Assembly: GCA_043818395.1 (NCBI GenBank)
Contig: JBDRFZ010000030.1
Span: 10,704 to 74,703, forward strand
Source: Patescibacteria group bacterium
GTDB taxonomy: Bacteria; Patescibacteriota; Patescibacteriia; 2-12-FULL-60-25
Direction of reading: 5' to 3'
DNA: 64,000 bases
Shown: one piece after another, positions 27,135 to 44,964 of the stretch
Layout: every line of letters begins with the position of its first letter
How positions within the stretch are numbered: the stretch's first letter is position 1
Notes under the pieces: generated by a model
Database searches by the model: none
What the model was told of the DNA's origin: nothing
The model's input: the letters and a program-made list of their open reading frames with translations, nothing else
Program-made: the position numbers and the translations under genes

Positions 27135-27172
<38 letters not shown>

Positions 27173-28028
27173 TAAAGAAAGCGTAACAGCTCACTGGTCA
27201 AGCTGACCTGCACCGAAAACTTACCGGGGCTCAAGTACATAACCGAAGTCGCGAATGTTTTCCGGTTTTTAACCGGAGGGCGTGGTAAGGGAGCATTCGT
27301 AACTGCGCTGAAGCGAAAGGCGTGAGCCATCGTGGAGCGTTGCGAAGAGAGAATGTCGGCATAAGTAGCAAAAAGACAGGTTAAAATCCTGTCCACCGTA
27401 AACCCAAGGTTTCCAGGGCAACGAGAATCGTCCCTGGGTTAGCCGGTCCTAAGGCCAGGCCGAAAGGCGTAACCGATGGATAGCAGGTGAATATTCCTGC
27501 GCTGCCTATAGGTTTCAATGGAGTGACGTGTTCTTGCATTTTTCGAGAATCCCGGAATGATTCTTCGGGCACGAAGGGGCGTGGTATAGGCAAATCCGTA
27601 CCGCATAAACCTCGTTGTGTACGCTAGTCTGCCGCGAGGCGGGCAAGGAAAGAGAATGGGGCACCAAGAAAACCTTCTAGAGTTAACCTGTAGGCATCCG
27701 TACCGTAAACCGACACAGGTGGGTGGGCATAAGTGTGCCAAGGTGTACGAGAGAACCCGTGTGTAGGAACTCGGCAATACAACGGCCGTAACTTCGGGAT
27801 AAGGCCTGCCCAGCTCAGCTGGGCTACAACAAAAGACGCAAACCGACTGTTTACCAAAAACACAGCTCCCTGCTAAACCGTAAGGTGATGTATAGGGAGT
27901 GATGCCTGGCCAGTGTCAGAACGTTAAGAGGAGGGGTCATACCGCAAGGTGGCAGCCCTGAATCCAAGCGCTGATGAACGCCGGCGATAACTATAATCGT
28001 CCTAAGGTAGCGAAATTCCTTGTCGGGT

Positions 28029-28787
28029 GAACAAAGTGTTCCACAAGAAGTGGTCGGACCCTGTAAAAATTACAGGATTAACACTCGCCCGAATCCTGCC
28101 GCGAGGCGGGATAAGCAAACTGACTCATAACGGTGAATCCCACATTCCGACGGACATCGGAACGGGAAATACCGTGGGAACTCTGTATAATACAAAATAT
28201 TATGAAGAGACCCGTAACGACTGACCCGAAAGGGGAGAGCCGATGGACATCGGCTAACACGTCAGCTCTTGTAAGAAAAAAACAATCCAGGGAGACGGCA
28301 TCTTATATAACAGGATTCGTAGATGGCGAAGGAAGTTTCTTGGTTTCGTTTAATCGGCGATCTGGGCTCAAGACGGGCATCGAAGTCCGTCCGAGTTTCA
28401 GTCTAAGCCAACATAAACGCAATCTAAGTATCCTTCAGTCAATAAAAAATTTTTTCAGATGCGGAGGCATTCGTTTTGATCGGCATGATCAGACTTATAA
28501 ATACGAGGTCAGAAGCCTCGGTGATTTATGGAATAAGATCATACCGCATTTCAAGACGATTCCTCTTAAGACATCAAAAGCAAAGGATTTTGAACTTTTC
28601 AAAGAGGTCTGTTCACTCATGCGAGCGAACAGGCATCGTTCAAAAGCCGGTCTTGAAAAAATATTGCGAATTGCCTATTCAATGAATAATATAGGCGCCA
28701 GAAAATATAAGTTGTCAGATCTCCTAAAGATCGTTACAAGATGAAAGTATAGTCTGAACTCTGATGAAAATCAGAGATAACAAATGG
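28029..28787 (+). mobile_element. 23S intervening sequence 1 (intron-like, about 760 nt) carrying a LAGLIDADG ORF
   Basis: The conserved exon sequence CTTGTCGGGT stops at 28028 and resumes as AGTTCCGACCCGCACGAATGG at about 28788. By recalled E. coli numbering this is roughly position 1930. Junctions are accurate to about 2 nt. Confidence 0.75.
28202..28744 (+). CDS. single-motif LAGLIDADG homing endonuclease
   Basis: YITGFVDGEGSFLVSF motif. About 180 aa from MKRPVTTD, although the listed ORF allows an earlier start at 28133. Lies inside the 23S insertion. Confidence 0.85.
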   Translation: MKRPVTTDPKGESRWTSANTSALVRKKQSRETASYITGFVDGEGSFLVSFNRRSGLKTGIEVRPSFSLSQHKRNLSILQSIKNFFRCGGIRFDRHDQTYKYEVRSLGDLWNKIIPHFKTIPLKTSKAKDFELFKEVCSLMRANRHRSKAGLEKILRIAYSMNNIGARKYKLSDLLKIVTR

Positions 28788-29303
28788 AGTTCCGACCCGC
28801 ACGAATGGCATAACGAGTTTGCGACTGTCTCCACATGGGACTCGGTGAAATTGCAAGTGGGGTGAAGATGCCCTGTACGCGTAGTCAGACGAAAAGACCC
28901 CGTGAAGCTTTACTACAACTTGATATTGGGTCGCGGCTTTTCATGTTCAGAATAGGTGGGAGCCTTCGGGCAACAGTGAGATACCACCCTTGAACTGACG
29001 CGATTCTCGATCCCTATCCGTGAATCCGGATGGGGAGACAGTATCTGGTGGGTAGTTTAACTGGGGCGGTTGCCTCCTAAAAAGTAACGGAGGCGTTCAC
29101 AAAGGTCAGCTAGGCGCGGATGGAAATCGCGCTGATTCCGCAATGGGATAAGCTGGCTTAACTGCAAGACCAACAAGTCGAGCAGATGCGAAAGCAGGAC
29201 ATAGTGATCCGACCGTACGATATCGGACGGCGGAAGCTCAACGGATAAAAGCTACTCCGGGGATAACAGGCTGATCGCGCCCAAGCGTCCACAGCGACGG
29301 CGC

Positions 29304-29344
<41 letters not shown>

Positions 29345-29375
29345 TAGAAGCTCCCAAGGGTTTGGCTGTTCGCCA

Positions 29376-29419
<44 letters not shown>

Positions 29420-30186
29420 AAAGATCGTGCTGTCTATAAATTCGACTATATGCTGGAAACTCTGGTTTGACTTCCAATTAGGAGTTGGAGTCTAAAGAAT
29501 CTCATGCTACAGGTTATAATAAAAAAATTATGACACGTAAAAAAGCATTGAGTGCAGACAATCAGCAGGGAAGATTACATCATCGTCTTGAACCATGGTA
29601 TGTCAGTGGATTTATTGACGGCGAAGGCAGTTTTCATATCGCGATTTATCAAGATCAAATAATGAAAACTGGCTGGAAGGTTATTCCAGAATTTCATGTC
29701 TCGCAAAGAGTTTCGAGCCGGTGCGTCCTTGACGCACTTGTAAGATTCTTTAAATGCGGTTATGTGAAAATGAATCACCGATTGAATCCGAAAGATGTTA
29801 CCTATGTATATGTAGTAAGAGATCGAAAAGATTTAGCGACAAAAATCATGCCTTTTTTCCGCCGGTATAAGTTACAAACAGAGAAAAAAGAAGATTTTAA
29901 AAAGTTTTCTCAGATTATCGAGTTGATGTTAAATGAGCGTCATCGAACGTCTGTCGGACTAAAGCAGATCATAAAGATCGCATATTCTATGAATGGTTCC
30001 GGCCGTTATCGAAAACGACCAAAAAAGACGATTTTATAAAACCCTCAGAGACTATATGTCGAAAGCCGATATGCATCGGTTAAGATATAGTCCGAACTGC
30101 ATGGCGACATGCAGAGTCCGACGGAAACGTCGGATCGCCACGGAGCGAAATCAGATTATTGATGTGGTTTGCGAAGTAACAATGTG
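29420..30186 (+). mobile_element. 23S intervening sequence 2 (intron-like, 767 nt) carrying a LAGLIDADG ORF
   Basis: The exon GTCGTGAGACAGT ends at 29419 and resumes as TCGGTCTCCTGTCTAC at 30187. This lies within the peptidyl-transferase-centre strand, near E. coli position 2600 by recalled numbering. Confidence 0.8.
29530..30039 (+). CDS. single-motif LAGLIDADG homing endonuclease
   Basis: YVSGFIDGEGSFHIAI motif. About 169 aa from MTRKKALS. Lies inside the second 23S insertion. Confidence 0.85.
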   Translation: MTRKKALSADNQQGRLHHRLEPWYVSGFIDGEGSFHIAIYQDQIMKTGWKVIPEFHVSQRVSSRCVLDALVRFFKCGYVKMNHRLNPKDVTYVYVVRDRKDLATKIMPFFRRYKLQTEKKEDFKKFSQIIELMLNERHRTSVGLKQIIKIAYSMNGSGRYRKRPKKTIL

Positions 30187-30664
30187 TCGGTCTCCTGTCT
30201 ACTACGCGCGTGGAATATTGAGAGGGCAAATCTCTAGTACGAGAGGACCGAGATTTACGAACCTCTAGTGCACCAGCTGTCCCACCAGGGGCACCGTTGG
30301 GTAGCTACGTTCGGCGCGGATAAACGCTGAAAGCATATAAGCGTGAAGCCGTCCTCAAGATTAATATTCATTATGAGAGCCCTCCGAGACGAGGAGGTTG
30401 ATAGGCCGTATGTGTAAGACCTGCAAGGGTTTTAGCAGAGCGGTACTAATAGCTCCATGCTTCGACCATCCGGGATTACGATATCCAAAATCCGTAAAAT
30501 GATTTTGCGTATCACAATCCGGATATGGTTAGAAAAATTTTAAACGTGTACTTACATCAAGGTATGCCTTGTACGTACGACTTTCGATCATCAAAATGTG
30601 AAGCTTTTAACTTGCAGGTTACAGGCCTTATCCTTCGGCGATTATTCGTGATTTTTCATGGATA

Positions 30665-30785
30665 TCCGCCGGTGGCTTAAGCGGCAGTGTCACACCTGTT
30701 CCCTTTCCGAACACAGAAGTTAAGCCTGCTAGCAGCGATGGTACTTGGACCCAACCCGGTCCTGGAAGAGTAGCCCGTCGCCGGA
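30665..30785 (+). rRNA. rrf: 5S rRNA
   Basis: CCGAACACAGAAGTTAAGC and GATGGTACTTGG...CCTGGAAGAGTAG blocks. The terminal helix is TCCGCCGG pairing with TCGCCGGA. Confidence 0.9.
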
Positions 30786-30795
30786 CTAAACAGAT

Positions 30796-30917: not shown

Positions 30918-31781
30918 TCACGGCTTTTCCGTATCTTCTGTTTCAAGTGTTGGGAAACGAAGTGTGAATGATGAACCCGAGCCGGGTTTTGAGATTACGG
31001 AGATTCGACCTCCTGCACATTCGACCAGGTTTTTAACAAAAGCTAGTCCAAGTCCATGACCATGTTCTTTGGTTGTGAAATAAGCATCGAAAATTTGAGG
31101 AAGATTTTCTGGCGTGATACCGCATCCGCTGTCAGAAATTAAGATTTCGATGAAACGCTGTGCATTTTCATATCTGCTGGATTTTGTGTCAATTTTCAGA
31201 CTGCCCTGATAGTTCATTGCCCAGAGGGCATTGTTTATCAGATTTTGTATGATGCGTGCGAACTGCTCTGGATCGATCTTTATATATACCGAGCTCTCTA
31301 TTGTAAGCTGCAGATCGATATCATGACCCGTGATACAGCTCATGGCAGTTGTTATCAGTATCTCGGAAATATCTATCCAAGTACTATGTTCTCCGATGGG
31401 TTTGCGCGCAAGTCGGTATAATTCAGTAGTTAATTCTTTGATTTTATCGCTAGCTCTCTCACATGTACGACGGCATCGTTCCCTATCTTCACTTTCGTTC
31501 AAAATATTTAACGGCATCAGCGCGTTATTAATATCATGCGCTATGCCCATAACCCTGGCCATTCTTTCTCGTAGTTCCGTTAGGATATTCGGTGGACATG
31601 TATCAGGGGTCACGACAACCGGGAATTTATTCTCCGGGACCGTAAGGTTTCCTGACTCAGGCATGGGTTTTGGCCTGATGCCGCTTAATGGTTTTAGCGT
31701 GCCGTCGCTTCGGGTTTGGCTGATAGGTCCGGTTACGTATTTTTTGGACATCTCCCTACCCCTCAATTCTTCAGGGTTCAT
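30918..31781 (-). CDS. soluble sensor histidine kinase (orphan, no adjacent response regulator)
   Basis: H-box IAHDINNAL, N-box NLINNALWAM, G1 DSGCGI and G2 GHGLGLAFV. No transmembrane segments. Confidence 0.8.
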   Translation of the reverse strand: MNPEELRGREMSKKYVTGPISQTRSDGTLKPLSGIRPKPMPESGNLTVPENKFPVVVTPDTCPPNILTELRERMARVMGIAHDINNALMPLNILNESEDRERCRRTCERASDKIKELTTELYRLARKPIGEHSTWIDISEILITTAMSCITGHDIDLQLTIESSVYIKIDPEQFARIIQNLINNALWAMNYQGSLKIDTKSSRYENAQRFIEILISDSGCGITPENLPQIFDAYFTTKEHGHGLGLAFVKNLVECAGGRISVISKPGSGSSFTLRFPTLETEDTEKP

Positions 31782-31984
31782 TTTTTAAGGTACAAGATTT
31801 CTATATGATAGCTTAGCGTTATTTTTAGGTCGAGTGGTTAAGTTGTTGAATATATCGTTTTTATCAAGTTTAGGTTATAAGCGATTTTTTTAGTCTTTAC
31901 ATACACATACATCAAAATATTAATAATTTTTATCTAATTTTAGCTTAATAGCTTAAATTTAGCTTAAAAATGTATATGTTACAC

Positions 31985-32013
31985 TTGACAAAAATTGAAA
32001 AGCATGCTATAGT
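31985..32013 (+). promoter_or_regulatory. near-consensus promoter pointing into the ORF-free left end of the GC-rich island
   Basis: TTGACA (31985-31990), a 17-nt spacer, then TATAGT (32008-32013). Confidence 0.5.
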
Positions 32014-32019
32014 GTTTGC

Positions 32020-32182
32020 GTAAAAATAAAGAAGGGTTGTAAAGGCAGTCTAGGCACCTTACAAATAAACTCAAAGGCTTGAAGGAGAGAGCAAGTCCGC
32101 GAATCCAATTTTATACACCAAGGGGTGATGGATTCGGGCGCTTTTTCCTAAAAGCTACCGAGTTCCATCACCCTTTTTGGTT
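32020..32182 (+). ncRNA. candidate ~160-nt terminated leader or sRNA
   Basis: Starts just downstream of the promoter. Hairpins TTGTAAAGG/CCTTACAA and GGCTTG/CAAGTCC are followed by a long terminator hairpin (32122-32132 pairing with 32164-32174, then TTTTT). There is no ORF. Confidence 0.35.
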
Positions 32183-32184
32183 GT

Positions 32185-32900
32185 CAGCTGGAACTTGAAA
32201 GGCAGACCCTACATTCTGCAAAACGGGCTTCGGCCCAAGCGCGGATACTCGAGGTACATAAAAAGCGGCTAGGGCAATAGTCAACAAAGTTTCGTTCGCT
32301 ACTCGCGAACACCGCCCAAAATACCGCTTCTCAATTCTGCCTTTCATATTCCAGCTCGCAAGAGCTTGAACCTTATAACTACCGCGATACTGATTGTTTT
32401 GGAGAATGAAATAGGAGAGAGATCCTGCTCCAAGATAATGAGTCGCATCTCTATTTGGTCCCGAACTAAAACGGGACAGTTGATTCGGAGTAATACCAAA
32501 ACCACCCGCCGAGAGAAGGGTGGCACGGCAAACAACCGGAGATCGACCTCGAAGTCCCTTAGAGAGACTTCGTAGTAACGAGTGCGTCCTGCCCTCTCCG
32601 ACCGTCGGAGGGGACCGGGACAGTCGCTACTACCATGGTTATGTAATAGACGACGGTCAGGACGCGACGAACTTTGACAACAAAATTCTGCTCAAGCGGA
32701 CGAACACCAATAACAATCATCTTGGGTTTCGTTTCGTCCTCTTAAGCAGAGCGCGGTTCTACTGAAGGAGTAACGCACTGGTGCGAAACTCTGGATGATA
32801 AACGGCGCTTGAAGAACGGAGGCCGGTGGCTAGATAAACCGCCGGTTAGAAAAATGGCAAAGTAGAACAAAAAAAATATCAAAATTAATTCGTTCGCGTC
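32185..32900 (+). ncRNA. candidate large structured RNA region (class unknown)
   Basis: No ORF of 60 aa or more has a ribosome-binding site. A 21-position helix with 19 pairs joins 32186-32206 to 32336-32356. A UUCG tetraloop hairpin lies at 32225-32236 and a GCAA tetraloop hairpin at 32353-32366. At least six further clean hairpins were noted, including 32458-32477, 32502-32523, 32550-32572 and 32584-32591/32658-32665. Confidence 0.35.
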
Positions 32901-33424
32901 AATTTTTTCCAAACAGTATTCAATAATAAGTTCGAGGCTCGCAATGAGCCAGAACAGAAAGGAGATCGAGAAAATAGCGGCACAGTTGAGTGCCGATCTC
33001 GCCGATCCGGAGCAGTTCCGGACGGTCATGGAGCTTGCGACCAACCGCTAGCTCCAAACCTCTCCCGCTGTTACGAGGTACAGCGGGAACAAAGAGGAAC
33101 CAACCTCAAAACGCACTCGGAGAGAAGCGCACACTTCTCATCCGATCCGAATTTTGGAAGCCCATAATTACTAAACTTGGGACTAAATCCAGACTTCAGA
33201 TCGGAGCAATCCGAAAATTACTCATGGATTCTCATTTGGCATCATAATCAAAGCGGCGGTAAAAAAGCCACCCACTGAGTTATGGAACCAAACGAGAAGC
33301 TATGAAGCCGGCACGGATAAATTCTGCACGTTGCAGGATCACGTGCGCGGTTGACGCGACTCAAACACGCACAAAACAAATATCGTGGAACGCCACGAGA
33401 ATACGTTTTGTGCAAAGGAGGCAG

Positions 33425-33610
33425 ATGGCCCATTGGCCAGCTTCCGGCCCCCACGGCCAGTGCCCGTGGTGTGGCGCGTCTGAAGACATCGGGGACTGCT
33501 GTCCCGATGCCCAGGCCGCCACCCGCGAGCCCGAGGCCGAGGGTTACCTCTGTGAGGGCGATGAAAACCGCTCTCACGGAGCCGACTCCACCCATCGGGT
33601 GGAGAATTAA
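33425..33610 (+). CDS. possible small Cys-rich protein (61 aa)
   Basis: AAAGGAGG lies 3 nt upstream of the ATG. The peptide MAHWPASGPHGQCPWCGAS...DCCPD has a zinc-ribbon-like Cys pattern. It could also be non-coding GC-rich sequence. Confidence 0.3.
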   Translation: MAHWPASGPHGQCPWCGASEDIGDCCPDAQAATREPEAEGYLCEGDENRSHGADSTHRVEN

Positions 33611-33826
33611 CCCCGGTGGGGAAACAAACGCACCGGCGTGAACCGGGACAGCTCGAACAGGGCGTCATGTGACGTCGTATCGAGTTGCGGGAGATGAGCG
33701 CCGCTTGAGGAGGGAGTGCAAGCGATCTTGCACGAGACTCCATGGCTCAAGCGCCGGAAATGACTGCCGGCGCCTAATCGCGGATTAGTCACCGCGTTTC
33801 GTACATTTCCCGGGTCTATCACCTGG

Positions 33827-34038
33827 GTTTGAGCAAAATCCTTGCTCTCTAAAACGACAGGTCGCGGCGCTTGATCACATGATCTAACATCGCGGGTTTC
33901 ACAGACCATGAATCACTCTTGAGTAATCAAGATCAATTCAAAACTGTGAGCTTGAGACGCCGTCTCCGTTTAGTAGAACGTAAAACTACAGCTACTCGCA
34001 TGCTCTCTTACGCTACTGCACAAGGCAATAGAGAGCAT
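33827..34038 (+). repeat. non-coding module A (paralog of module B)
   Basis: Shares these blocks with 35374-35603: GTTTGAGC(A/G)AAATCC, ATCGCGGGT(T/A)TCACAGACCATG, CAAAACTGTGAG(C/A)TTGAGACGC(C/A)GTCTCCGT and GAACGTAAA. It also shares a terminal hairpin whose loop contains CTGCACAAG. Confidence 0.75.
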
Positions 34039-34106
34039 CCGATCCTATTTCCGCACACTCCCATAAAGAAATCATTCTGGGTTCGTGGTTCGGAAATGAG
34101 ATCGGA

Positions 34107-34676
34107 TTATGGTCGGGCGTTTTCTTCCAATGCCGTTATTCGTTCTTCGTGGCGAAGACTGGCGTTCCGAAGGGAGGAAATCTCGATATCAACAGTCCGA
34201 TGATGCGTGGCGAACCAGTCAACATGCGTCAGAATCTCCTGCTTGAATTCTTGTAGATCATCCTTAGTCGCGAATCCAAGCAGATCATCCTTGGTGGCGA
34301 AACGCTCATCAAGGCGCCGGAATTGATCGTCTGTATGGGAAGATAGGTCGTGAACAGCCTCGAGTATGTCTTGAATTGAGGTTGTGTGTTCCTGGGAAAC
34401 AGATTTTAACCCTGCAACGTCCGTCTTCAGCTCGGTTACATCTGATTTTAACCCTGCAACGTCCGTCTTCAGCTCGGTTACATCCTTTGCAAGGATATTA
34501 ACCGTAGATTTGAGATCGGTCATGTCCTTCGTAAGACCGGCTACGCCTTTAGAAAGACCGGCCATGTCTTTAGAAAGGCCTTGGACTACATCTAAAATCT
34601 TTTCGTTGGCTGAATCAGCGGTCATATGGAGAGCATTAGTGAATGAAGAATAGCATCCTCTAAATACCGCTGCCAT
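34107..34676 (-). CDS. coiled-coil repeat protein (14-aa tandem repeats, ATKDDL motifs)
   Basis: 189-aa ORF. The repeat DVTELKTDVAGLKS occurs twice and FATKDDL occurs twice. The architecture parallels 45083..45478. The start (34676 or 34625) is uncertain. Confidence 0.55.
   Translation of the reverse strand: MAAVFRGCYSSFTNALHMTADSANEKILDVVQGLSKDMAGLSKGVAGLTKDMTDLKSTVNILAKDVTELKTDVAGLKSDVTELKTDVAGLKSVSQEHTTSIQDILEAVHDLSSHTDDQFRRLDERFATKDDLLGFATKDDLQEFKQEILTHVDWFATHHRTVDIEISSLRNASLRHEERITALEENARP
34402..34485. repeat. near-perfect 2 x 42-bp tandem duplication inside the coiled-coil gene
   Basis: GATTTTAACCCTGCAACGTCCGTCTTCAGCTCGGTTACATC(T/C) at 34402-34443 and 34444-34485. The two copies differ only at the last base. 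Confidence 0.9.
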
Positions 34677-34995
34677 AAATCGAGGGAGAGGTCAAGATGT
34701 GGATATTCGGAAACAGCGTTTTCTCGGTAGAAATCGTGATTCGAAAAAGTTCGAAGCACGATTTCTCTCGAGGAGAGAGAAAATTTTGATCGGATGATCT
34801 GAAGCGACGTCTCATACGTGAGCGAATCAAATCAGGCTCGGATCGAACGGCCGCGCGTAACGGTCGATAGCTCCATCGAGAGGTGAAGAAGAAACGTAAG
34901 CGCGGCTCCGACGCATTCGGGCAAGCGAACTCGGCGGATATTGAAACCCGCCTTTCAGAATGGAGCCCGCGGCTAGATAAACCGCGGGAGAGAAC

Positions 34996-35337
34996 ATGGC
35001 CGGCACCTACACCGTCACCGCCACCTCCGTCACCGCCACCTCCACCCCCGCCACCCTGCTCCGGTTGAGCTTCGGCTCGCCGGCGCAGAACGACGTCATC
35101 GTCCGCGACGCCGTCGTCGCCCTCGAGGCCCACAAGCTCGAGGGGGGGAAGCTGGTCCTACTGAATGGGCCCGCTTCCCTGCCAGTGGCTTGCGCCCTCG
35201 CGCACGGCCTCGGGCACATCTTCGGCGCCATCGGGGTCTTCGACCCCAAGATGGCGGGGTACGTAGTCGCGGTCAGTCATGACCCGACGTTCCCCGTGGG
35301 GATGACCATCCCAGCGTCGGAGGTGAAAGAGGGCTGA
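34996..35337 (+). CDS. Csx3-like protein (CARF-related cyclic-oligoadenylate ring nuclease family, Crn3)
   Basis: The segment GKLVLLNGPASLPVACALAHGLGHIFGAIGVFDPKMAGYVVAVSHDP matches my recollection of A. fulgidus Csx3 (G.VISGRGPIWLHCFLAHKYHH...AVYDPRLGAVVVQSH), including the His/Asp positions. Not verified by search. Confidence 0.5.
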   Translation: MAGTYTVTATSVTATSTPATLLRLSFGSPAQNDVIVRDAVVALEAHKLEGGKLVLLNGPASLPVACALAHGLGHIFGAIGVFDPKMAGYVVAVSHDPTFPVGMTIPASEVKEG

Positions 35338-35373
35338 TCACCCTCTCGAAACATATCTCGGATTGATCTCCGA

Positions 35374-35603
35374 GTTTGAGCGAAATCCCAGCTCTAGAAA
35401 ATGATGGGTCGTGATACGAGATCGAGAGATTAAGTATCGCGGGTATCACAGACCATGGAATTAGAAAAAAGTATCGTGTACTGAGTACCGGGTACTATCT
35501 CTCTAAACTCCAAAACTGTGAGATTGAGACGCAGTCTCCGTCCGTGGAACGTAAATTCACTAACACTCGAAACCCACCTAAGCCCTGCACAAGCTGCGGT
35601 GGG
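35374..35603 (+). repeat. non-coding module B (paralog of module A; its terminal hairpin is a paralog of 45023-45068)
   Basis: See module A for the shared blocks. The hairpin ACCCACC/GGTGGGT carries a loop containing CTGCACAAG. Confidence 0.75.
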
Positions 35604-35800
35604 TTCCTCGAACTGAATGTTTAAAAAAATGTCGTCTCGACTAAAACGGAGAGACCTTCAATTTGAAGATCCATTCGACTCGGCCACGGTTCTATTTTTT
35701 GGATAGGCCTTCGCTCAGGATGACAATTTTTAAACGCTCGATTCGAGGAAATGGTTCCTCCAAAACTTTCCCGCAGAACGCGGGAGAAAGGAGACGGCTA

Positions 35801-36385
35801 GTGAAAGTCGTACTCTGTGGACCCCCGCGTTCGGGGAAGTCCTGCCTAAGGCAGGGCTTAAAGGACGCGGTACGGAGCATTCCTGGGGCTCCGTACCCCT
35901 ACGTCATCACCGCGTGCCCCGACGGGGAGGGCTCGTGGTTCCAGGAGACGGTGAACTCCGACCCCGAGGCTGCTGCGAAGTTCAAGGCGGCCTACAAGAG
36001 CAAGTTCACCCCCGAGTTCGTGCGCAGGGTCGCGGACTCGGTGAAAAACTGCACCCTGTCTCTTACGCTGGTGGATATAGGCGGTATCCCCAGCGCAGAG
36101 AATAAAGAAATTTGCGCCGCCGCCACGCACGCCGTTCTTCTCGCAGGGGATACCTCGCGGTTCCCCGAGTGGCGTGAGTTTTGCGAGAAACTCGGAATCT
36201 CTGTCCTGGCCGAGATTGCGAGTAACTACCAAGGCCAGGAAGACTCCCCGCCGTATCTCGACGGCGACGAGGGAGTCTTCGTCGGTTCGGTTCACCACCT
36301 CGAACGCGGTGAACCGGTCGCAGAGCGCCCGACTGTCAAGGCGCTCGCCGAGATTCTGGTCGCGTTGGTCGGCGATCAGGAGTAG
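35801..36385 (+). CDS. P-loop NTPase (kinase/ATPase-like), function unknown
   Basis: AAAGGAGA SD and a GTG start. Walker A (VVLCGPPRSGKSC), an ACPDGEGSW segment and a Walker-B-like LSLTLVDIGG. Confidence 0.6.
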   Translation: MKVVLCGPPRSGKSCLRQGLKDAVRSIPGAPYPYVITACPDGEGSWFQETVNSDPEAAAKFKAAYKSKFTPEFVRRVADSVKNCTLSLTLVDIGGIPSAENKEICAAATHAVLLAGDTSRFPEWREFCEKLGISVLAEIASNYQGQEDSPPYLDGDEGVFVGSVHHLERGEPVAERPTVKALAEILVALVGDQE

Positions 36386-36405
36386 TTAGACCAACCGGGC
36401 GAAGA

Positions 36406-36737
36406 GATCCCTCGACTTCGCTCGGGACGACAGAGGGCAGGAGATATAGCGACTCCTCTTTTAAACAATTCGCTTATCACTCGAAGCTCGGTTGCACATC
36501 CGGGCTCTTCGAATGGAAGTTTGATTGAATTCGTCATTCCCGGGAAAATGGGAATCCAGGTAGCTTGCTGATGGATCCCCGCTTTCGCGAGGATGACGTA
36601 GATCGAAAATCCGTTCGAGGAAGAGTTCCTTGTGTTTTTCTTTCCGCACAGGTCCGGAACAGATGCCTATTTTGACGGATGAGTCAGATGACTCTCTCCG
36701 TCAGGCTACCTGTTATCTTAGGGGGAAGTTCCGGATC
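36406..36737. repeat. left copy of a ~300-bp imperfect direct repeat (E and D modules)
   Basis: E1 (36406-36459) and D1 (36653-36737) are colinear with E2 (43904-43956) and D2 (44123-44207). Shared strings include ACAGAGGGCAGGAGATA, ACTCTCTCCG and GGAAGTTCCGGATC. Confidence 0.6.
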
Positions 36738-36759
36738 GGTGCGGGAATAAAAAACAAAA

Positions 36760-36984
36760 TCAAATTAGTTTTATAAAGTCTTCCGGTGACAGATCGATAT
36801 CGCGCAAAATGCCTCTGAGCGTACCGCGCGGCAAGTCTTGATTGCCATGCATGGGGATGGTTGCCAACCGACCATCACGATGGCGTAATTGAACATGGCT
36901 GCCGCGTTGTCGCGTAATCATAAACCCTGCTTTTTGCAGGGTTGCGATCAATATTTTACCGGAGATAACCGGAAGCGGCGGCAT
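36760..36984 (-). CDS. hicA: HicA-family mRNA interferase toxin
   Basis: 74 aa. GKILIATLQKAGF ... RQRGSHVQLRH is a typical HicA/YcfA core. Confidence 0.85.
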   Translation of the reverse strand: MPPLPVISGKILIATLQKAGFMITRQRGSHVQLRHRDGRLATIPMHGNQDLPRGTLRGILRDIDLSPEDFIKLI

Positions 36985-36989
36985 AACGA

Positions 36990-37223
36990 TCAGATTTGCG
37001 GTTCAGCTACTGTCTCGAAAGTCTCAAAGCTTCTGTCTTCCGGAAGTGACTCGCGATTGGCTGCCATATCTTCCAAATAAAGCTGGATGGCTTCGCGGAT
37101 ATTTTGTTTGGTTTCTTCCAAGGATTTGCCCCAGGTATGACAACCGGGCAACGAAGGTACGAAAGCATGAAAAGACTGACCCTCATCCGGCTCGATGATT
37201 ACTCGATAAGTCAATGCTCTCAT
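36990..37223 (-). CDS. hicB: HicB-family antitoxin (N-terminal UPF0150 fold only)
   Basis: YRVIIEPDEGQSFHAFVPSLPGCHTWGKSLEETKQNIREAIQLYLE. Sits directly upstream of hicA. Start taken at MRALTYR. Confidence 0.8.
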   Translation of the reverse strand: MRALTYRVIIEPDEGQSFHAFVPSLPGCHTWGKSLEETKQNIREAIQLYLEDMAANRESLPEDRSFETFETVAEPQI

Positions 37224-37253
37224 ATGTCTGAAGCCTAACATCGGACGGACGGC

Positions 37254-37305
37254 CTGTCAAAGGCCAAACCTTCCCTTGTCAAACCTTCCCTTGTCAAACC
37301 TTCCC
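37254..37305. repeat. tandem 15-bp repeats TTGTCAAACCTTCCC (2 perfect, 1-2 degenerate)
   Basis: Perfect copies lie at 37276-37290 and 37291-37305, with degenerate copies at 37254-37275. Lies between divergent hicB and the 37404 gene. On the minus strand each unit contains TTGACA. Confidence 0.85.
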
Positions 37306-37403
37306 ATGCTTAAAAAAGGTTCTAAAATTATTTGGAATCTTTTTTGAGGATGAGTATCCTCTGGCGCGCCGGACGAATTCCGGATTTGGCCAACGGAGGA
37401 AAC

Positions 37404-37754
37404 ATGGCCAAAAAAATTCTCTGGATGTCGCGCCATCGACCGACGGCGCGGCAGATCCAGTCGCTCCGCGTCATGTATGGCGCGGATACGGTCGTCGAAG
37501 TGGAGCCGCGGCCCTTCGACGACGCGCGACAGATCGCGCGGCGATTCAAGGAAGGCGGATTCCACGATCTCGTGGTCGTGGCGCCGCTTTCGGTCCTGGC
37601 TGTCTTGTGCGATCAGGGGCTTAAACCTCTGTGGTCACAGGCGGCCGAGGAAAACGATCCCGCGAAGATCGAATTTCGCGGGGCACGTGGGCAGGGCTAC
37701 CGCTTCGTCCGGTTTCGCCGAGTGAAGCGAGTGGCAGTCGAGTTTGAGGACTAA
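37404..37754 (+). CDS. hypothetical protein (116 aa)
   Basis: GGAGGA SD 4 nt upstream of the ATG. GC-rich codon usage consistent with the neighbouring genes. No motif recognised. Confidence 0.5.
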   Translation: MAKKILWMSRHRPTARQIQSLRVMYGADTVVEVEPRPFDDARQIARRFKEGGFHDLVVVAPLSVLAVLCDQGLKPLWSQAAEENDPAKIEFRGARGQGYRFVRFRRVKRVAVEFED

Positions 37755-37778
37755 CAAAAACAAAAAGGAAAGGAAAAA

Positions 37779-38051
37779 ATGGTCCAGAAAGTCTGGACCC
37801 TGGCTTCGGGTCAGGAGGTCGTGGATCGCGACGTCTCGCATATCCATGCGGGCGTCACGGACGAACTCTTATCCGAGGCACTCTCGTCGCTAAGCGTAGG
37901 TGACGGAGAGCGGGTCAAATATACGCATTTCTTCAGACGCACGGTCGGTGTCTCCCATTGCGTGAAAACGCAGGACGGGGAAGCTCCGAAGCGTCATGGG
38001 CAAGCGGTCATCTGCCTTTTTGTGGACAAGATAAACGGGTGCGGGAGTTGA
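37779..38051 (+). CDS. hypothetical protein (90 aa)
   Basis: AGGAAAGGA SD-like stretch before the ATG, 24 nt after the previous stop. Confidence 0.4.
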   Translation: MVQKVWTLASGQEVVDRDVSHIHAGVTDELLSEALSSLSVGDGERVKYTHFFRRTVGVSHCVKTQDGEAPKRHGQAVICLFVDKINGCGS

Positions 38052-38098
38052 TTGGTTCTCTCGCAAGTCCACCCCAAAACTCCGGAAAGGAGAAAACC

Positions 38099-38452
38099 AT
38101 GAACAAGGAAGAATGGAAAGAAGAAAAAGCGCGTCGTCAGGACGCGCTGAAAGAATTTGAAACAAAAAACGCGGCCGAGCTCGAGGCCGCCCGCCACTTG
38201 TTGGCGGAGAACGAGCGCCTGCGCCGGTTGGCGTGGGCTGGCGCCCCCGAAGGGCACGCCCGTTGTTACGGCTACGACGAAGAGTCGGACGTCGACTGCG
38301 ATAAGGTCGTGCCTTTGCGGGAACATGAAAGTGTTCCCGTGGGGTGGTGTATTCGCACCTATGGCTGCGGGTGCAGTGAGCCAGAGACAATGTTTTGTCC
38401 GGCACATGCGCACCAGGCACGCGAAGACCGTTGTGCCGAATGCAGTCGTTAG
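38099..38452 (+). CDS. hypothetical Cys-rich protein (117 aa)
   Basis: GGAAAGGAGA SD before the ATG at 38099. N-terminal helix, then a C-terminal cysteine cluster (CYGY...DC...CIRTYGCGC...CPAH...CAEC). Confidence 0.45.
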   Translation: MNKEEWKEEKARRQDALKEFETKNAAELEAARHLLAENERLRRLAWAGAPEGHARCYGYDEESDVDCDKVVPLREHESVPVGWCIRTYGCGCSEPETMFCPAHAHQAREDRCAECSR

Positions 38453-38605
38453 TTCTTTCTCGCGGTGCGCTCACGTTTTGTGATGCGCACCGCCCGTTTT
38501 TTTCGTACATATTGGATGGTCCGATGTGCACGGAAAGTTCGGTCGGCGATGACGTAATCGTCGCTACAAAAAAAAGGCCGCCAAGGGCGGCAGAAAGAGA
38601 ATCAC

Positions 38606-39820
38606 GTGAGTGATCTCAAAACGGCCGTTGCCCTGGCGGCCAAGATCCAGGGCATTTCAAAGGACGTCCTCGCGCGCCACATTGGGCGCGGGGACGTGGT
38701 GCGAGCCACCTGGCTCGCACTCGTGAGCGGCCGTCCGGCCTTCTTCCTCGGGCCTCCCGGGGTGGACAAGACCGGGACGGTTCAGGATTTGGCGCGTAGG
38801 GTCGACGGAGCCGTCTTTTTTGACGCGCTCATGCCGACCCTCGTCTCGGTCGAGCAGCTCCTCGTGGAGAGTACCTCCATCGAGGAGTCGTCGACGGCGG
38901 ATGGCGGAAAGTCCATCCGTACGCGCGACACGCTCGGCCGCGCTGCCGGCGCGCATCTCCTCTTCGCCGATGAGATCTGGAAAGCAGAACCCCGTGTTCT
39001 GCAGACGGTTCTCGACCTGGCGAAAGGGGACGGCGTGCGCCACGAGGGAACGCAGGTCAAGACGCCTCTCAAGGCGTTCTTGGCCGCGTCCAACGAGCTC
39101 CCTGACTCCGAGGGAAACCTCGGCGCGGTTTGGTCTCGTATGACCATCCGCGTCGTAGTCAAGGAGCTCGATCGCAAAGGCAAAACCGCGTTGGTCAAGG
39201 CGCGGTTGGCCAAAGTACGTGGCATGTCTGCCAAGGCCAGCGGGAGCGACAAGCTCACGCTCGCCGAAGTGGACGATCTGCGCGCTGCGCGCAGCCGGAT
39301 CGAAATCTCGGATGAAATCGTGGAGATCGTGCTCGACATCGTCGAGCAGCTCCGCGATGAAAACTCCGGAACGTTCGACTGGGCCTGGGCCGACGACCGG
39401 CGTTTCGGTCGCGTGTTCGACGTCATGCAGGCTAACGCCTTGCTCGATGGCCGAACGCGGGTCGGAAAACAGGACCTCGCGGTTCTGGAGTGGCTACTCT
39501 GGGATTCACCCGAGCAGATTCCGACGGTCAAGGCCAAGATCGCGCCGTTTTGCCGCACTCCGCTCATGGATGCACAGGAGATGCTCGACGCACTCCTGGC
39601 TCCCGGAGGGGTTGTGGCAGATGTGCTCGGCGGCAACCGGACCAAAGGCGTGGCGGCTCTGACGCAGTGTGAAAGCTGCGCCGGTGAGCTTGCTACGCTC
39701 AAGGCCAGCGCTGACGCGAGTATGGCGCAGGGCATCGACCAGCTGGTCCGGCAGCTGGAGTCCGTGAAAGCGGACGTGATCGCAGTGATCACCGGAACGC
39801 GGACGTCCGCCGCGAAATAG
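38606..39820 (+). CDS. MoxR-like AAA+ ATPase
   Basis: Walker A (FFLGPPGVDKTG), Walker B (LLFADEIWKAEP) and the following VLQTVLDL...G segment are typical of MoxR/AAA_5 ATPases. GTG start. Confidence 0.75.
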   Translation: MSDLKTAVALAAKIQGISKDVLARHIGRGDVVRATWLALVSGRPAFFLGPPGVDKTGTVQDLARRVDGAVFFDALMPTLVSVEQLLVESTSIEESSTADGGKSIRTRDTLGRAAGAHLLFADEIWKAEPRVLQTVLDLAKGDGVRHEGTQVKTPLKAFLAASNELPDSEGNLGAVWSRMTIRVVVKELDRKGKTALVKARLAKVRGMSAKASGSDKLTLAEVDDLRAARSRIEISDEIVEIVLDIVEQLRDENSGTFDWAWADDRRFGRVFDVMQANALLDGRTRVGKQDLAVLEWLLWDSPEQIPTVKAKIAPFCRTPLMDAQEMLDALLAPGGVVADVLGGNRTKGVAALTQCESCAGELATLKASADASMAQGIDQLVRQLESVKADVIAVITGTRTSAAK

Positions 39821-39861
39821 CGGACCCGTAGGGGCGGGGTCTCCCCGCCCAAGGAGGATAC

Positions 39862-41652
39862 GTGGAAGAAACTCGAAAGGGCGGACCCGCGTGTCCGCCC
39901 ATCGCGCGACAGGAGCTGCAAAAGCTCCTGGTGACGGACGCGGACGCCTTTACGGCGCTCCGCTACCTCCGTCACCGCGAGAACGTTCCCTCGCTCCCGG
40001 ATCTGGAAGAGCAGGGCCGCAAGGCTCTGCCCGGGATTGAGGGTAGTCTCTGCGACCTCTACCACACGCTTTGGGCGCCAGAGCCCAGCGTGAAGGAAGA
40101 GGTTGCGTCGGACCGCCGTTACTGGCGTGAGTTGCTCGGTGAGGCTGTGAAATCCACGGCATACGCCGAGCTGCATGCCAGTACGCAGCTCTCGGAGCTA
40201 AAGTCCGTACTGGGCACCGTGGCCATGGGTGAAACCGTGGTCAAGACGGTGTCCAAGGAGGACGCTGAGAAGCTGCAAGAGACGGCAACTGCGCAACGTG
40301 AGGCCGACGATGCGCAGCAAGAAGCAGACCAGGCGCAAGCCGCGGCAGACATGGCGCAAGCCATGTTCGAATCCGCGAATGCGCAAGCTGGTCAGGGCCA
40401 GGGGAGCGGAGGATCTCAAAAAGATCCTTCGACTACGCTTCGCTCCGCTCAGGACGACAGTTCTGGCGGACAGCTGCAGCCCGGCCAGGGCAAACCCGGA
40501 AAAAGATCCCTCGACTCCGCTCGGGACGACAATTCGTCATCGACCGGTGGGCGAGGGACACTGACCCCGGAGCAAGCCAAGGCGTTGGCTGACGCACTGG
40601 CTGATGAGTGGCTCAAAGCGCAGGAATGCGCCGAGGCCGCGAATCAGTTAGCCGCCGAAGCCAAAGCCAAGGCCGAAGCCCTGGCTAATGAACTTCTGGG
40701 CCAACCCGGCAAGCAGCAAGCGGAGCAAAAGCTTCGCGAACTGGCGCGCGCCGGGCAAGCGGCAATCAAGGCCGCACAAGCCAAGGTGGAGGAGGTTTCC
40801 GAAACCATCGAGGCTTGGGGACTTGAGGAAGCCGAGCTCACGCGCCAGAGCATTCCCGAAGCATTGGGTTTGCTCGAGCGCATGAAGCGAAGTGCGGCAC
40901 TCAAGAAGTTCGCGGCTCTGCTCGGTCGCTTGCGCAAGATCGCGGCTCGCAAAGCGCGATCCAAAACGCAGGCCAGAGGCGTACGCATTGCTATCCCGGA
41001 AACGGGACGCGACATGCGCCGCGCCTACCCGAGCGAGCTGGTGGCTCTCGCACATCCGGCGACCCGCACCCAAGCGCTCAAGCGCTGGGCACGCGGCGAG
41101 CTGCGATTGCGCGGCGAGCAAGCTAAGCAAAAGCTTGGCCATGGCCCGGTCATCGTCTGCGAAGACGCGTCCGGGTCCATGGATGGAGCCAAGCAACAGT
41201 GGGCCAAGGGAGTAGTTCTTTCCCTGGCGCACTTTGCAAAACTCCAGAAGCGGTCGTTCGGTTGGATCATGTTCGATTCCCGAGTTCATCGGGCGGAAGA
41301 ATATCCTGCCGGGCGCATCGCGGCCAAGCAGATGCTTGATATCGTGGAGTCCCACGCCGGTGGCGGCACGGACTTCGAACGCCCACTGCGCAAAGCGCTG
41401 GAAATGGTGAAACAAACCGGCCTCAAAAAGGCCGACATCTGCTTCATCACCGACGGCGAATGCGCAGTGAGCGAAACTTTCCTGCGGGAATTTAAAGCGG
41501 CTAAACGCGAACTTGAAATCAATGTCTTCACGATTCTGTGCGACGTTGGTTCGAGCGCGGACAGCACCGTCAGCGAATTCTCTGACAGGATCGAAACGGT
41601 TTCCAGCTTCTCGGCAGAAGAAGCGGAGACCAAGGTGTTTGGTTCTTTGTAG
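39862..41652 (+). CDS. vWA-domain protein with an acidic, low-complexity linker (CoxE/CobT-like architecture)
   Basis: AAGGAGGA SD and a GTG start. The C-terminal vWA domain has the MIDAS motif (VCEDASGSMDG) plus GGGTDFERPL and FITDGE. The central linker is Ala/Gln/Asp-rich. Confidence 0.8.
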   Translation: MEETRKGGPACPPIARQELQKLLVTDADAFTALRYLRHRENVPSLPDLEEQGRKALPGIEGSLCDLYHTLWAPEPSVKEEVASDRRYWRELLGEAVKSTAYAELHASTQLSELKSVLGTVAMGETVVKTVSKEDAEKLQETATAQREADDAQQEADQAQAAADMAQAMFESANAQAGQGQGSGGSQKDPSTTLRSAQDDSSGGQLQPGQGKPGKRSLDSARDDNSSSTGGRGTLTPEQAKALADALADEWLKAQECAEAANQLAAEAKAKAEALANELLGQPGKQQAEQKLRELARAGQAAIKAAQAKVEEVSETIEAWGLEEAELTRQSIPEALGLLERMKRSAALKKFAALLGRLRKIAARKARSKTQARGVRIAIPETGRDMRRAYPSELVALAHPATRTQALKRWARGELRLRGEQAKQKLGHGPVIVCEDASGSMDGAKQQWAKGVVLSLAHFAKLQKRSFGWIMFDSRVHRAEEYPAGRIAAKQMLDIVESHAGGGTDFERPLRKALEMVKQTGLKKADICFITDGECAVSETFLREFKAAKRELEINVFTILCDVGSSADSTVSEFSDRIETVSSFSAEEAETKVFGSL

Positions 41653-41822
41653 GGGCACAGCGTGCTGTGCCCCTACGCTCGGACGACGTTTGCCGCATCG
41701 TCTTTTGCTCTCGGGAAGCGCAGCACTTGCGCTTCCCCTGATTTTTTCCGTCTGGAGCATGGTGCTCGAGATGGGAAATTTCAGTTTTTCGGCCGTGCAT
41801 GGCCAAGTAAAAGGAGGCCGCC

Positions 41823-43886: not shown

Positions 43887-43903
43887 AAAAACCCGAATAA
43901 AAT

Positions 43904-44207
43904 ATCCCTCAACTTTATTCGGGACAACAGAGGGCAGGAGATATGACAGCTCCTCTCATCGCAAGATGAAAAACAATCTGTCTGCACCTTGGGCGCGGCA
44001 ACCGTGCCCCTACGGGGAAGGATGAGATTGCACATCTCATCTTTCCCTCCTGAATTTTCTGACGTTTTTTAAAAAAGGTCGGAATGACAGGTTTCTCACA
44101 CGAGGTGGGTTTTCAGCACAGATTCGGAACAAGGCCTATATTGATTGGTTAGCCTAGCGAACTCTCTCCGCCGGGTCGCCCGTAATCATAGGAGGAAGTT
44201 CCGGATC
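43904..44207. repeat. right copy of the E and D direct repeat
   Basis: See the entry for 36406-36737. Confidence 0.6.
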
Positions 44208-44385
44208 TATGCGGAAAAAATGTAAAAAACACTCATGGTCATGAGTCTGATTAAAGTTAGACTCATGCCTATGATTGGGCAGATGGTTCAAATCCACACG
44301 AATAAGACGCGAAGCAATTATGTCGGACGTTTGAATGATCCAAGACTGGATCGATCGTGTGGAGGAGAGCAAGAAGGAAATAGAA

Positions 44386-44964
44386 ATGATCAAGTTCGAA
44401 ATCGCCAACATCGTAACTTCCTTTTCTTTTTTTGCGATCGGCACCAAGGTGCTCGATCGCGAGGGTCTGCTCACGGCGGCCGCGAAAGCGGTCGAGGCGC
44501 ACGACCCGTCGGGCGACCGGCAGCCAGGGCAGCACTTCGTGCTCGTCCCGGACGGCGTGCGGCTCGTCTCCGCCGGAGTTGGTCGCCGGACCGATAACCC
44601 CGACGACTATGTCGTACGGAAGGGTCGGTTCGCCGTTGACTGCTATCTTCGGCGTGAGAAGGCGGCGAAGGTCGAAGGCTTGGCTCTCGTGGTCTACACC
44701 AGGGACGCCTACCTCGCCGACCCCGACCTCCAGAAGCCGGAGGAGGCCGAGGAGCGCGCGCGGATCGAACAGAGCGACTGCACCCACGTCATCGTGGCCG
44801 TGCTCGCCTTTGCTGGCCCGCAGTCGCCACTGCCGCCCTCGACTTTCATCCACAACTTGGCCGGGGGAAACCTCGAGGTCGAGAAGTGGTCGAAGGAGGA
44901 GATCTGTGAGAAGGCCGCGCAGATCGAGGCGTACTGGAACGACTGGTGCATCGTGGCGGATTAG
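44386..44964 (+). CDS. hypothetical protein (192 aa)
   Basis: AAGGAA SD-like stretch before the ATG. The opposite-strand 260-aa ORF is Arg/Leu-rich, as expected for antisense of GC-rich coding DNA. No motif confidently recognised. Confidence 0.55.
   Translation: MIKFEIANIVTSFSFFAIGTKVLDREGLLTAAAKAVEAHDPSGDRQPGQHFVLVPDGVRLVSAGVGRRTDNPDDYVVRKGRFAVDCYLRREKAAKVEGLALVVYTRDAYLADPDLQKPEEAEERARIEQSDCTHVIVAVLAFAGPQSPLPPSTFIHNLAGGNLEVEKWSKEEICEKAAQIEAYWNDWCIVAD

Follow-up and report, generated by a model that had tools for sequence, protein, structure and literature searches.

What could conserved non-coding modules do between the genes of an island that has spread horizontally into bacteria with tiny genomes? 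We take up this question in 64,000 nucleotides of a Patescibacteria genome (contig JBDRFZ010000030.1; this whole stretch is hereafter the window). An initial annotation had pointed there to two paralogous non-coding modules, A and B, in an island, with B between the gene of a Csx3-like protein and that of a P-loop NTPase (the ATPase in the following). Patescibacteria, the bacteria of the candidate phyla radiation (CPR), have tiny genomes, and to our knowledge very few of their regulatory RNAs are known. The comparisons reported here show, at the level of sequence, that the two modules are copies of a structured RNA element so far undescribed, encoded on the sense strand and maintained in evolution. 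The locus is a 13-kb horizontally spread island in which every intergenic region examined on the sense strand is an RNA structure that is conserved and covaries. Most notable are a pseudoknot element that starts at the stop codon of the CARF-family gene and a recurrent hairpin, with a fixed heptaloop, behind several genes.

Two copies of one folded element

Modules A and B had been described as ordered blocks separated by variable spacers. All these blocks are present where they had been placed, each of them twice in the window, and in a mismatch-tolerant search each long block occurs exactly twice where about zero occurrences are expected by chance. Aligned with MAFFT, A and B share about 78% mean column identity with long identical blocks, a similarity that is not one of low-complexity strings. 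A repeat finder gives the two main block pairs as families of only two copies, A and B, and an nhmmer profile built from both matched only these two sites in the window. The limits of the modules had to be moved: their homology begins about 48 nt upstream of the earlier start, at 33779 in A and 35328 in B, and two more hairpins lie in the added part.

A and B fold alike on the plus strand (z-scores of -4.6 and -3.9). The order of the elements is a hairpin named P-1, an A-rich linker, a hairpin P0, an H-type pseudoknot, and then P2, P3, P4, P5 and P6 (Table 1). P-1 is made from the last codons of the upstream open reading frame (ORF) and holds the stop codon in its loop. The pseudoknot combines stem 1 (GAGC/GCUC), stem 2 (CCCA/UGGG) and an A-rich loop 3; what had been read as a small hairpin, GTTTGAGC(A/G)AAATCC, does exist and is stem 1 of this pseudoknot. 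P3 encloses a variable hairpin, P2 to P5 are optional, and P6 has the form CACUCGA-stem-UUGCACA-like loop-stem. Between A and B there are two compensatory pairs in P0 and one in P5, and the stem of P6 is wholly replaced.

Two other readings of the blocks were rejected. A small ORF within the modules would be either a minus-strand one (33607-33909), which starts in the conserved block of A and has only 8 codons in B, or a plus-strand one from the ATG after CAGACC, of 4 codons in A and 9 in B. In a boxA/nut-like reading of GCUCUAGAAAA, the GCUC is a covarying stem arm.

The fold is kept in other genomes and on the sense strand

Relatives were sought in a protein-guided scan that gave 80 loci centred on the ATPase gene (L-numbers designate these loci). 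An nhmmer search of the 80 loci with the A/B profile returned four weak partial matches only and simple block searches failed; the relatives were found by reading spacers and by covariance-model searches. The same architecture, in whole or in part, is present in ten loci: L015, L016 (3' half), L031, L032, L043, L056, L159 (twice), L161, L165 and L167. A metagenome scan with TTGAGCRAAATCCNNGCTCT gave 60 loci, 58 of them chance matches in coding DNA; the real ones, L138 and L145, are from the same organism. L138 is a strain variant of the window (98% identical) with a third module 3' half, ending in a T-run, at the left edge of the island, and in this extra half the P4 and P5 stems are compensated.

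The alignments of these relatives carry the case for a structure under selection. In the 5' domain, 94.3% of the cells pair across seven sequences (89.3% across nine), as against 35-56% in slid controls, and 12 of the 20 pairs are changed on both sides. Both stems of the pseudoknot covary. P3, P4 and P5 are found as 5, 6 and 8 distinct stems, respectively, all fully paired. In P6, 83.5% of the cells pair across 12 sequences, which was not equalled in any of 500 shuffles, and compensatory changes affect 11 of the 15 pairs. The suggestion that the modules are functional RNA or protein-binding DNA rather than products of drift is thus supported by the tests of pairing and covariation, and of the two options sense-strand RNA is favoured. 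This is because of the excess of G-U pairs in the 5' domain (8, as against 2 A-C mismatches), because all the covariance-model matches with E <0.05 are sense-oriented, and because the element starts at a stop codon. The best reading of the modules is therefore that they act as sense-strand RNA.

These results leave little room for the idea that A and B are a neutral segmental duplication with ordinary terminators for hairpins, which we find hardly credible. It is true that the hairpin and start at the 5' end of Csx3 are duplicated as well (32822 and 34965), which suggests that a whole cassette was duplicated in the past. Yet compensatory changes affect every stem, both between A and B and across genomes, which contradicts neutrality, loops are kept while stems vary, and only 2 of the 22 P6 hairpins examined are followed by a T-run.

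The duplicated 5' hairpin has the loop CTAGATAAA and is followed by ATGGC (32822-32845 and 34965-34988), and its stems are themselves compensated (CCGGTGG/CCGCCGG versus CCCGCGG/CCGCGGG). The copy at 34965 precedes the start codon of Csx3; the one at 32822 precedes only a 3-codon ORF. The arrangement points to an earlier duplication of the entire Csx3 cassette, with module A as the 3' end of the duplicated unit. Today this module is an orphan whose structure has been kept without an upstream Csx3 gene: only a degenerate 39-codon ORF precedes it, and a search for a decayed Csx3 or another pseudogene upstream of it revealed no similarity.

The 5' domain starts at the stop codon of Csx3-like genes

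To which gene does the element belong? In L015, L031, L056, L159, L165 and L167 the Csx3-like stop codon is followed by the 5' domain, irrespective of the gene further downstream. The same holds for L032 and L043, which have the ATPase gene first and Csx3 second. Hence, the 5' domain belongs to the 3' end of the Csx3-like gene. One of the two L159 copies sits after a different gene, not a Csx3-like one. A second sequence type was found in L157, L163 and L168, where the stop-codon hairpin is kept and accompanied by a different pseudoknot with an A-rich loop. Stem 2 of this type 2 covaries (GGUAUAU/AUAUACC, GGUAGAC/GUCUACC, GGCAUAC/GUAUGCU), and types 1 and 2 have their topology in common and almost no conserved nucleotides. 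All modules of both types carry the stop codon within the P-1 loop, with the exception of L165, in which the TAA lies partly in the loop and partly in the 3' arm of the stem, and all three stop codons occur in P-1 hairpins.

The P-1 loop (C-UGA-UCA) and the P0 loop (UUGAUC) are complementary, and the contact between them pairs in 88.9% of the alignment cells, with one covarying position and two exceptions. A UAA stop in L159a and L167 goes with a P0 loop UGAUUA. This pattern is suggestive of a tertiary loop-loop contact. One might then speculate that the 5' domain tunes translation termination, recycling or re-initiation by sequestering the stop codon in a P-1/P0 kissing complex and pseudoknot. 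The constant place of the stop, the use of all three stop codons, the loop complementarity and the covariation between the second stop-codon base and the P0 loop (UGA with UGAUC, UAA with UGAUUA) would all fit. Yet there is a single covarying position, violated by two sequences; both loops come from a near-palindrome, which gives some complementarity for free; no frame is open past the stop, so that read-through and frameshifting are excluded; and the type-2 modules lack a complementary-loop P0 hairpin. We consider a role in termination unlikely. A recoding signal as such was rejected because no reading frame remains open: all three close within 11-27 codons past the Csx3 stop, and the peptides in the +1 frame show no relationship between A and B.

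The pseudoknot might instead be the aptamer of a riboswitch or attenuator for the downstream ATPase gene, sensing for example a cyclic oligoadenylate or some other nucleotide, with P6 and an alternative downstream helix as its expression platform. In its topology the small H-type pseudoknot, with a loop 3 rich in A, is similar to aptamers built on small pseudoknots; in L015, L016 and L056 the 3' flank of P6 (CCUCGAUUGA) has an alternative pairing partner in a downstream UCAAUCGAGG; and P6 with a U-tract is terminator-like at the island ends. But the position of the element is fixed to the upstream stop, not to the downstream start, and it occurs with the ATPase gene upstream (L032, L043). Types 1 and 2 share their topology with almost no conserved nucleotides, unlike a ligand pocket, P6 of A and B has no U-tract, and no Rfam family matches. 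The pseudoknot and the possible alternative pairing 3' of P6 are found in an element tied to an upstream stop, and a riboswitch seems to us improbable.

A hairpin with a fixed loop recurs after other genes

The initial annotation had counted three hairpins with a TGCACA loop in the island. These three are confirmed, and the family has five members, the two others being at 36478-36512 and 44014-44047. All five are plus-strand and intergenic and carry TGCACA in the apical loop (centres at 34017, 35586, 36493, 44029 and 45045); the consensus of the P6 loop is UUGCACA. The reported compensatory change between the terminal hairpin of B and the hairpin at the end of the island, hairpin C (ACCCACC/GGTGGGT to ATCCACC/GGTGGAT), is there, and hairpin C is a true homologue of P6 of B that differs from it by one indel and a compensatory pair. 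The fourth hairpin lies about 90 nt past the stop codon of the ATPase gene, the fifth about 130 nt past that of a gene for a 687-aa protein. In related islands, P6 hairpins are found 4-280 nt after the stop codons of ATPase and other genes. The window outside the island has only five short (6-bp) stems around TGCAC, which is at chance level, and none has the family flanks. TGTGCA, a partner site for the UUGCACA loop, was sought across the island and is not enriched.

The T-runs are restricted to the two P6 copies at island edges, hairpin C and the left-edge copy of L138. After hairpin C the run coincides with the drop in GC content at the edge of the island and gives a terminator-like 3' end. 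Modules A and B were rejected as intrinsic terminators: the sequence behind P6 (CCGATCC in A, CCTCGAAC in B) is no U-tract, and they are absent from a terminator scan, so that the terminator feature is confined to these two edge copies.

Two further non-coding modules are paralogous to each other, with 74% identity, at 36383-36765 (after the ATPase stop) and 43884-44235 (after the stop of the 687-aa gene). Each of them has an AGGAG-AUAUnGCnn-CUCCU hairpin, which is also found after the ATPase gene in L056, L159 and L167, as well as a hairpin with a UUGCACAU loop and a compensated stem (CAGG/CCTG versus CGGG/CCCG).

Could the hairpins work as DNA, i.e. as sites of recombination or transposition, as cassette boundaries (attC-like or IS200/IS605-like ends) or as operators? 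The related islands are GC-rich in every host examined and their gene content past the ATPase gene varies by locus. Both edges of the island are occupied by P6 hairpins, ACCCACC stems recur almost unchanged at positions that are not orthologous, and P6 stems are near-perfect palindromes with no strand bias in folding energy. Yet among the gene calls of related loci a recombinase was found in L157 only, some 8 kb off, and domain scans of the main island ORFs of the window gave no recombinase or transposase domain. Neither target duplications nor inverted repeats at the termini were seen, all copies are oriented alike with respect to the genes, attC sites are not marked by a conserved apical loop, and the G-U excess and pseudoknot of the 5' domain are features of RNA. 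We regard DNA-level sites as very unlikely.

As to mobile elements, neither insertion sequence (IS) nor miniature inverted-repeat transposable element (MITE) features were found, and ends of such elements were rejected: there are only two module copies in 64 kb, the position after Csx3 is fixed in other genomes, and phage and plasmid DNA gave no match to the modules. Viral contigs yielded 14 chance matches and 0 in two scans with module-block patterns, and no relatives in a protein-based scan.

The Csx3 and ATPase genes

By their profile matches, the two genes that flank module B are a split form of the CRISPR-accessory protein Csx3-AAA. The Csx3-like product matches Pfam Cas_csx3 (E=1.9e-7), PADLOC Csx3 (E=1.5e-15) and the N-terminal part of Csx3-AAA; the ATPase matches PADLOC Csx3-AAA with E=8.8e-58. 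The Csx3-AAA model PDLC01045 is covered by the two adjacent genes, Csx3 taking profile positions 12-104 and the ATPase 108-285. The Csx3-AAA family has been described (PMC6546367). An AlphaFold2 model of the ATPase (predicted local distance difference test of 86) has Foldseek matches to GPN-loop GTPase, MinD and the signal recognition particle, which amount to generic SIMIBI-class similarity only. This protein has more than 1000 homologues and is 100% identical to a protein of a metagenome-assembled 'Patescibacteria group bacterium' genome. No CRISPR-cas genes were noted among the scanned ORFs of the island.

Pairs of Csx3 and ATPase genes, in one order or the other, are found widely among CPR bacteria, cyanobacteria and other groups, and in other lineages the two are fused or tightly coupled. 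Csx3 and ATPase are the only genes common to all hairpin-positive loci. It is possible, if none too likely, that the module is a partner RNA of these proteins, released from the transcript and bound by Csx3 or the ATPase into a ribonucleoprotein with a role in defence or signalling. Csx3 is a CARF-family protein that binds RNA and cyclic tetra-adenylate (cA4), and the RNA would be likened to ToxI, retron RNA or CRISPR RNA. Apart from the two shared genes, this is suggested by the link of the 5' domain to Csx3-like genes in at least 8 genomes and by the orphan module A, which is structured without an adjacent Csx3 and so fits a role beyond local control in cis; two similar or complementary loops would also suit a dimeric binder. 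On the other hand, no promoter is predicted for either module, the element overlaps the end of an ORF, one L159 copy follows a different gene, and most Csx3/ATPase pairs (those of cyanobacteria and of many CPR loci) are without a module, which indicates that it is not required for the core function of the proteins.

A bolder proposal, which we think rather unlikely, assigns the modules and the UUGCACA hairpins together to a new kind of CARF-ATPase system, of which they would form the RNA part. Their conserved loops would be recognised by Csx3, by the SIMIBI-like ATPase or by both, the csx3 stop would lie in a kissing-loop/pseudoknot fold, and the RNA would be sensor, scaffold or substrate. The system would be an RNA-containing, CRISPR-free relative, in CPR bacteria, of the type III accessory modules.

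The island and its surroundings

The island extends from about 32000 to 45070 (some 13 kb) and has 55-64% GC, versus about 43% for the genome. Besides the Csx3-like and ATPase genes, it encodes a MoxR ATPase, a VWA protein, the 687-aa protein, small ORFs and a HicAB pair. Its features are collected in Table 1.

Table 1. Modules, hairpins, genes and promoter-like site of the island (window coordinates)
Feature	Position	Strand	Remarks
Sigma-70-type promoter-like site	31985-32013	+	TTGACA-17-TATAGT, 11/12 matches, extended -10
Structured lead-in to module A	33605-33778	+	z-score -5.35 (33605-34050)
Module A, full extent	33779-34042	+	R2 score 80 bits
A P-1	33779-33796	+	loop AUUAGUCA contains UAG
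A P0	33809-33827	+	
A pseudoknot	33831-33861	+	
A P2	33862-33895	+	
A P3	arms at 33899 and 33944	+	variable hairpin enclosed
A P4	33954-33966	+	
A P5	33973-33989	+	
A P6	33993-34042	+	loop CUGCACAAG
Csx3-like gene (CARF, ring-nuclease family)	34996-35337	+	stop codon inside P-1 loop of module B
Module B, full extent	35328-35611	+	R2 score 101 bits, R1 score 63 bits
B P-1	35328-35346	+	last two Csx3 codons, UGA in loop
B P0	35357-35374	+	
B pseudoknot	35378-35408	+	
B P2	35409-35442	+	
B P3	35446-35525	+	53-nt insert
B P4	35526-35538	+	
B P5	35544-35560	+	
B P6	35564-35611	+	
Rest of Csx3-to-ATPase spacer	35612-35803	+	hairpins GTCTC/GAGAC, CTTCAA/TTGAAG
P-loop NTPase gene	35801-36385	+	ATPase half of Csx3-AAA, SIMIBI-like fold
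Fourth P6-type hairpin	36478-36512	+	CACTCGA-AGCTCGG-UUGCACAU-CCGGGCT-CTTCGA; R1 score 33.5 bits
Fifth UUGCACA-loop hairpin	44014-44047	+	GGGGAAGGATGAGA / TCTCATCTTTCCC
Hairpin C	45024-45073 (45007-45073 with P5 remnant 45007-45021)	+	stem AAATCCACCG, loop with GUGCACAU; R1 score 47.6 bits

The spacer is structured beyond module B. Its GTCTC/GAGAC hairpin shows a compensatory change to ATCTC/GAGAT between strains (the 98%-identical variant), and a GC-rich hairpin (35770-35803) lies directly 5' of the Shine-Dalgarno sequence of the ATPase gene. GC-rich hairpins of different stem sequence stand in this position before the ATPase gene in most related loci, and one also precedes the VWA gene of the window (39825-39861). 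In the lead-in to module A, a 29-nt block at about 33626-33654, which contains ACGCACCGGCGTGAACCGGGACAGCTC and a CCGG-CGTGAA-CCGG hairpin, is 100% identical to L056 11933-11961. The DNA around it cannot be aligned between the two genomes, and in both the block lies just after a stop codon and upstream of a P6 hairpin.

The promoter-like site at 31985-32013 is the only strong sigma-70-type site in the scanned part of the island (31700-38700) and is kept in L056 and in the strain variant L138. It is a candidate start for one long sense transcript. Directly downstream, the 1.3 kb or so at 32020-33420 hold few ORFs and are conserved in part in L056 (32413-32586 against 8145-8312, about 70% identity). 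In L157, L159 and L160, gaps of a comparable kind, free of genes, come after a divergent TrmB-like gene. The region may be a large leader or a non-coding RNA; it has no Rfam match.

Several repeats and genes of the region are recorded here for completeness. A 31-nt repeat family, AAAAGATCCCTCGACTCCGCTCGGGACGACA, has five copies (36402, 40419, 40501, 43899 and 63028), two of them in frame in a low-complexity region of the VWA gene and one beyond the island. The pair of HicA toxin and HicB antitoxin is on the minus strand within the island (36760-37241) and has homologues in L016, L017, L074 and L157. The minus-strand coiled-coil gene next to module A (34107-34676) includes exact 41/42-nt tandem repeats (34402-34484); a second coiled-coil gene just beyond the island (45083-45478) has repeats with a 21-nt period (45282-45365), and the two proteins are related. 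In both the window (25885-30786) and L056 (448-3997), the island lies a few kb downstream of 23S-5S rRNA genes, which suggests that its position may be conserved in the lineage despite its foreign base composition. The 23S rRNA match of the window (25885-30039 region) spans 3589 nt, compared with a model of 2925 nt, and encloses a LAGLIDADG endonuclease ORF (28133-28744); another LAGLIDADG ORF (29485-30039) sits between the end of this match and the 5S gene. Introns in rRNA are common in CPR bacteria, and these ORFs probably mark such introns.

A proposed role: intercistronic punctuation of a long transcript

How, then, should the modules be understood? The reading that we favour, in a tentative way and at somewhat less than even chances, is that they are cis-encoded RNA elements in 3' untranslated region (UTR) or intercistronic positions that punctuate one long transcript. 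The island would be read as a single sense transcript from the strong promoter at 31985, and the modules would act on it in cis. Their conserved loops (UGAUCA-like and UUGCACA) would be recognised by a protein encoded by the island or by the host, and the succession of hairpin, linker and hairpin together with the pseudoknot would define cleavage sites and exonuclease barriers. As a result, mRNA stability and expression might be uncoupled for Csx3, ATPase and the downstream cassettes. P6 is also used alone after other genes and, with a U-tract, marks the ends of the island. We infer that such punctuation probably controls processing, stability or termination.

A number of observations do not sit easily with this interpretation. 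The folding energies of P6 stems favour neither strand (10 versus 12). The family is known from about 15 loci in a narrow set of CPR islands, and its sequences are not all independent because several P6 stems are near-identical. No candidate RNA-binding protein or RNase was identified, the genes shared by hairpin-positive loci being those of Csx3 and the ATPase. Finally, an element of 260-290 nt that includes a pseudoknot exceeds what simple stabiliser hairpins normally require.

The structure is undescribed in Rfam and in the literature searched, which yielded no report of a Csx3- or Csx3-AAA-associated RNA. Rfam 15 gave rRNA and tRNA only over the whole window at the gathering threshold, no match on the modules for 31700-38700 at E<=5, and likewise none for the modules of L056, L159 and L161. 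As a structured operon RNA, the element is of a familiar general kind with unusual features. If it does control processing or stoichiometry, it shows how a mobile island can bring post-transcriptional punctuation of its own to hosts that differ widely in base composition. If Csx3 or the ATPase binds it, it would add an RNA partner to a widespread and uncharacterised CRISPR-accessory module. Either way, the modules make a well-defined candidate family for Rfam, tractable for structure probing and binding assays.

Comparison with known systems

Integron attC sites are, like the hairpins described here, imperfect palindromes that follow promoterless cassettes served by one promoter, and their structure is kept while their sequence varies. 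The present hairpins differ by the lack of an integron integrase and of R''/R' core sites, by their conserved apical loop and by their RNA-type features. With flanks CACTCGA and CCTCGA and the conserved loop UUGCACA, they were rejected as attC, and the divergent gene beside the promoter in related loci is TrmB-like, not an integrase. The loop itself recalls another system. The loops of U1 snRNA stem-loop II and of the U1A 3'-UTR element carry AUUGCAC, and UUGCACA includes UUGCAC; the U1A element is likewise in a 3' UTR and in two copies. However, the U1A system is eukaryotic and no protein with an RNA recognition motif was identified in the island, so that we take the likeness, which may be due to chance, as a lead only.

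The pseudoknot resembles the preQ1-I and SAM-II aptamers in its layout (stem 1, short loop 1, stem 2 from the loop, A-rich loop 3). It differs from them in having no Rfam match, no pocket kept between types 1 and 2, and a place 3' of an ORF instead of in a 5' leader. ToxI, retron msr-msd and the non-coding RNAs of defence-associated reverse transcriptases are also structured RNAs beside defence-type genes, ToxI has a pseudoknot too, and these RNAs are needed as protein partners. Here, by contrast, the neighbours are the split Csx3-AAA pair, and there are neither tandem 36-nt repeats nor a ToxN-like gene. A ToxI-like antitoxin was rejected, the modules having no tandem repeats and the Pfam, NCBIfam and PADLOC scans no ToxN/AbiEii-type domain. 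So was a retron, for lack of a reverse-transcriptase gene and of flanking a1/a2 repeats.

Also comparable are put of phage HK022 and EAR of Bacillus eps operons, processive antitermination RNAs of about 65-130 nt, of which EAR has a pseudoknot. They too are structured RNAs between genes of a long operon, where they act in cis on downstream transcription. The modules differ from them in sequence and in having no Rfam match; they are anchored to a stop codon, they are repeated, and they end in a hairpin that is elsewhere terminator-like.

Parallels to intercistronic punctuation are the stem-loops between cistrons and in 3' UTRs that set the stability of mRNA segments in bacterial operons, for example the puf hairpins of Rhodobacter, the repetitive extragenic palindromic (REP) hairpins of malEFG and the elements of papBA processing. 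As in these, the modules lie on the sense strand just past stop codons of a multi-gene unit, with hairpins flanking an A/U-rich linker, and are placed as exonuclease barriers or processing sites. Membership in REP or bacterial interspersed mosaic elements was rejected, with five copies within a 13-kb island and stems that differ by compensatory change. The modules stand apart by their pseudoknot, their up to eight helices over about 260-290 nt and their conserved loop sequences. They are also specific to one island instead of genome-wide, and where the known repeats are near-identical their stems have diverged by compensatory change.

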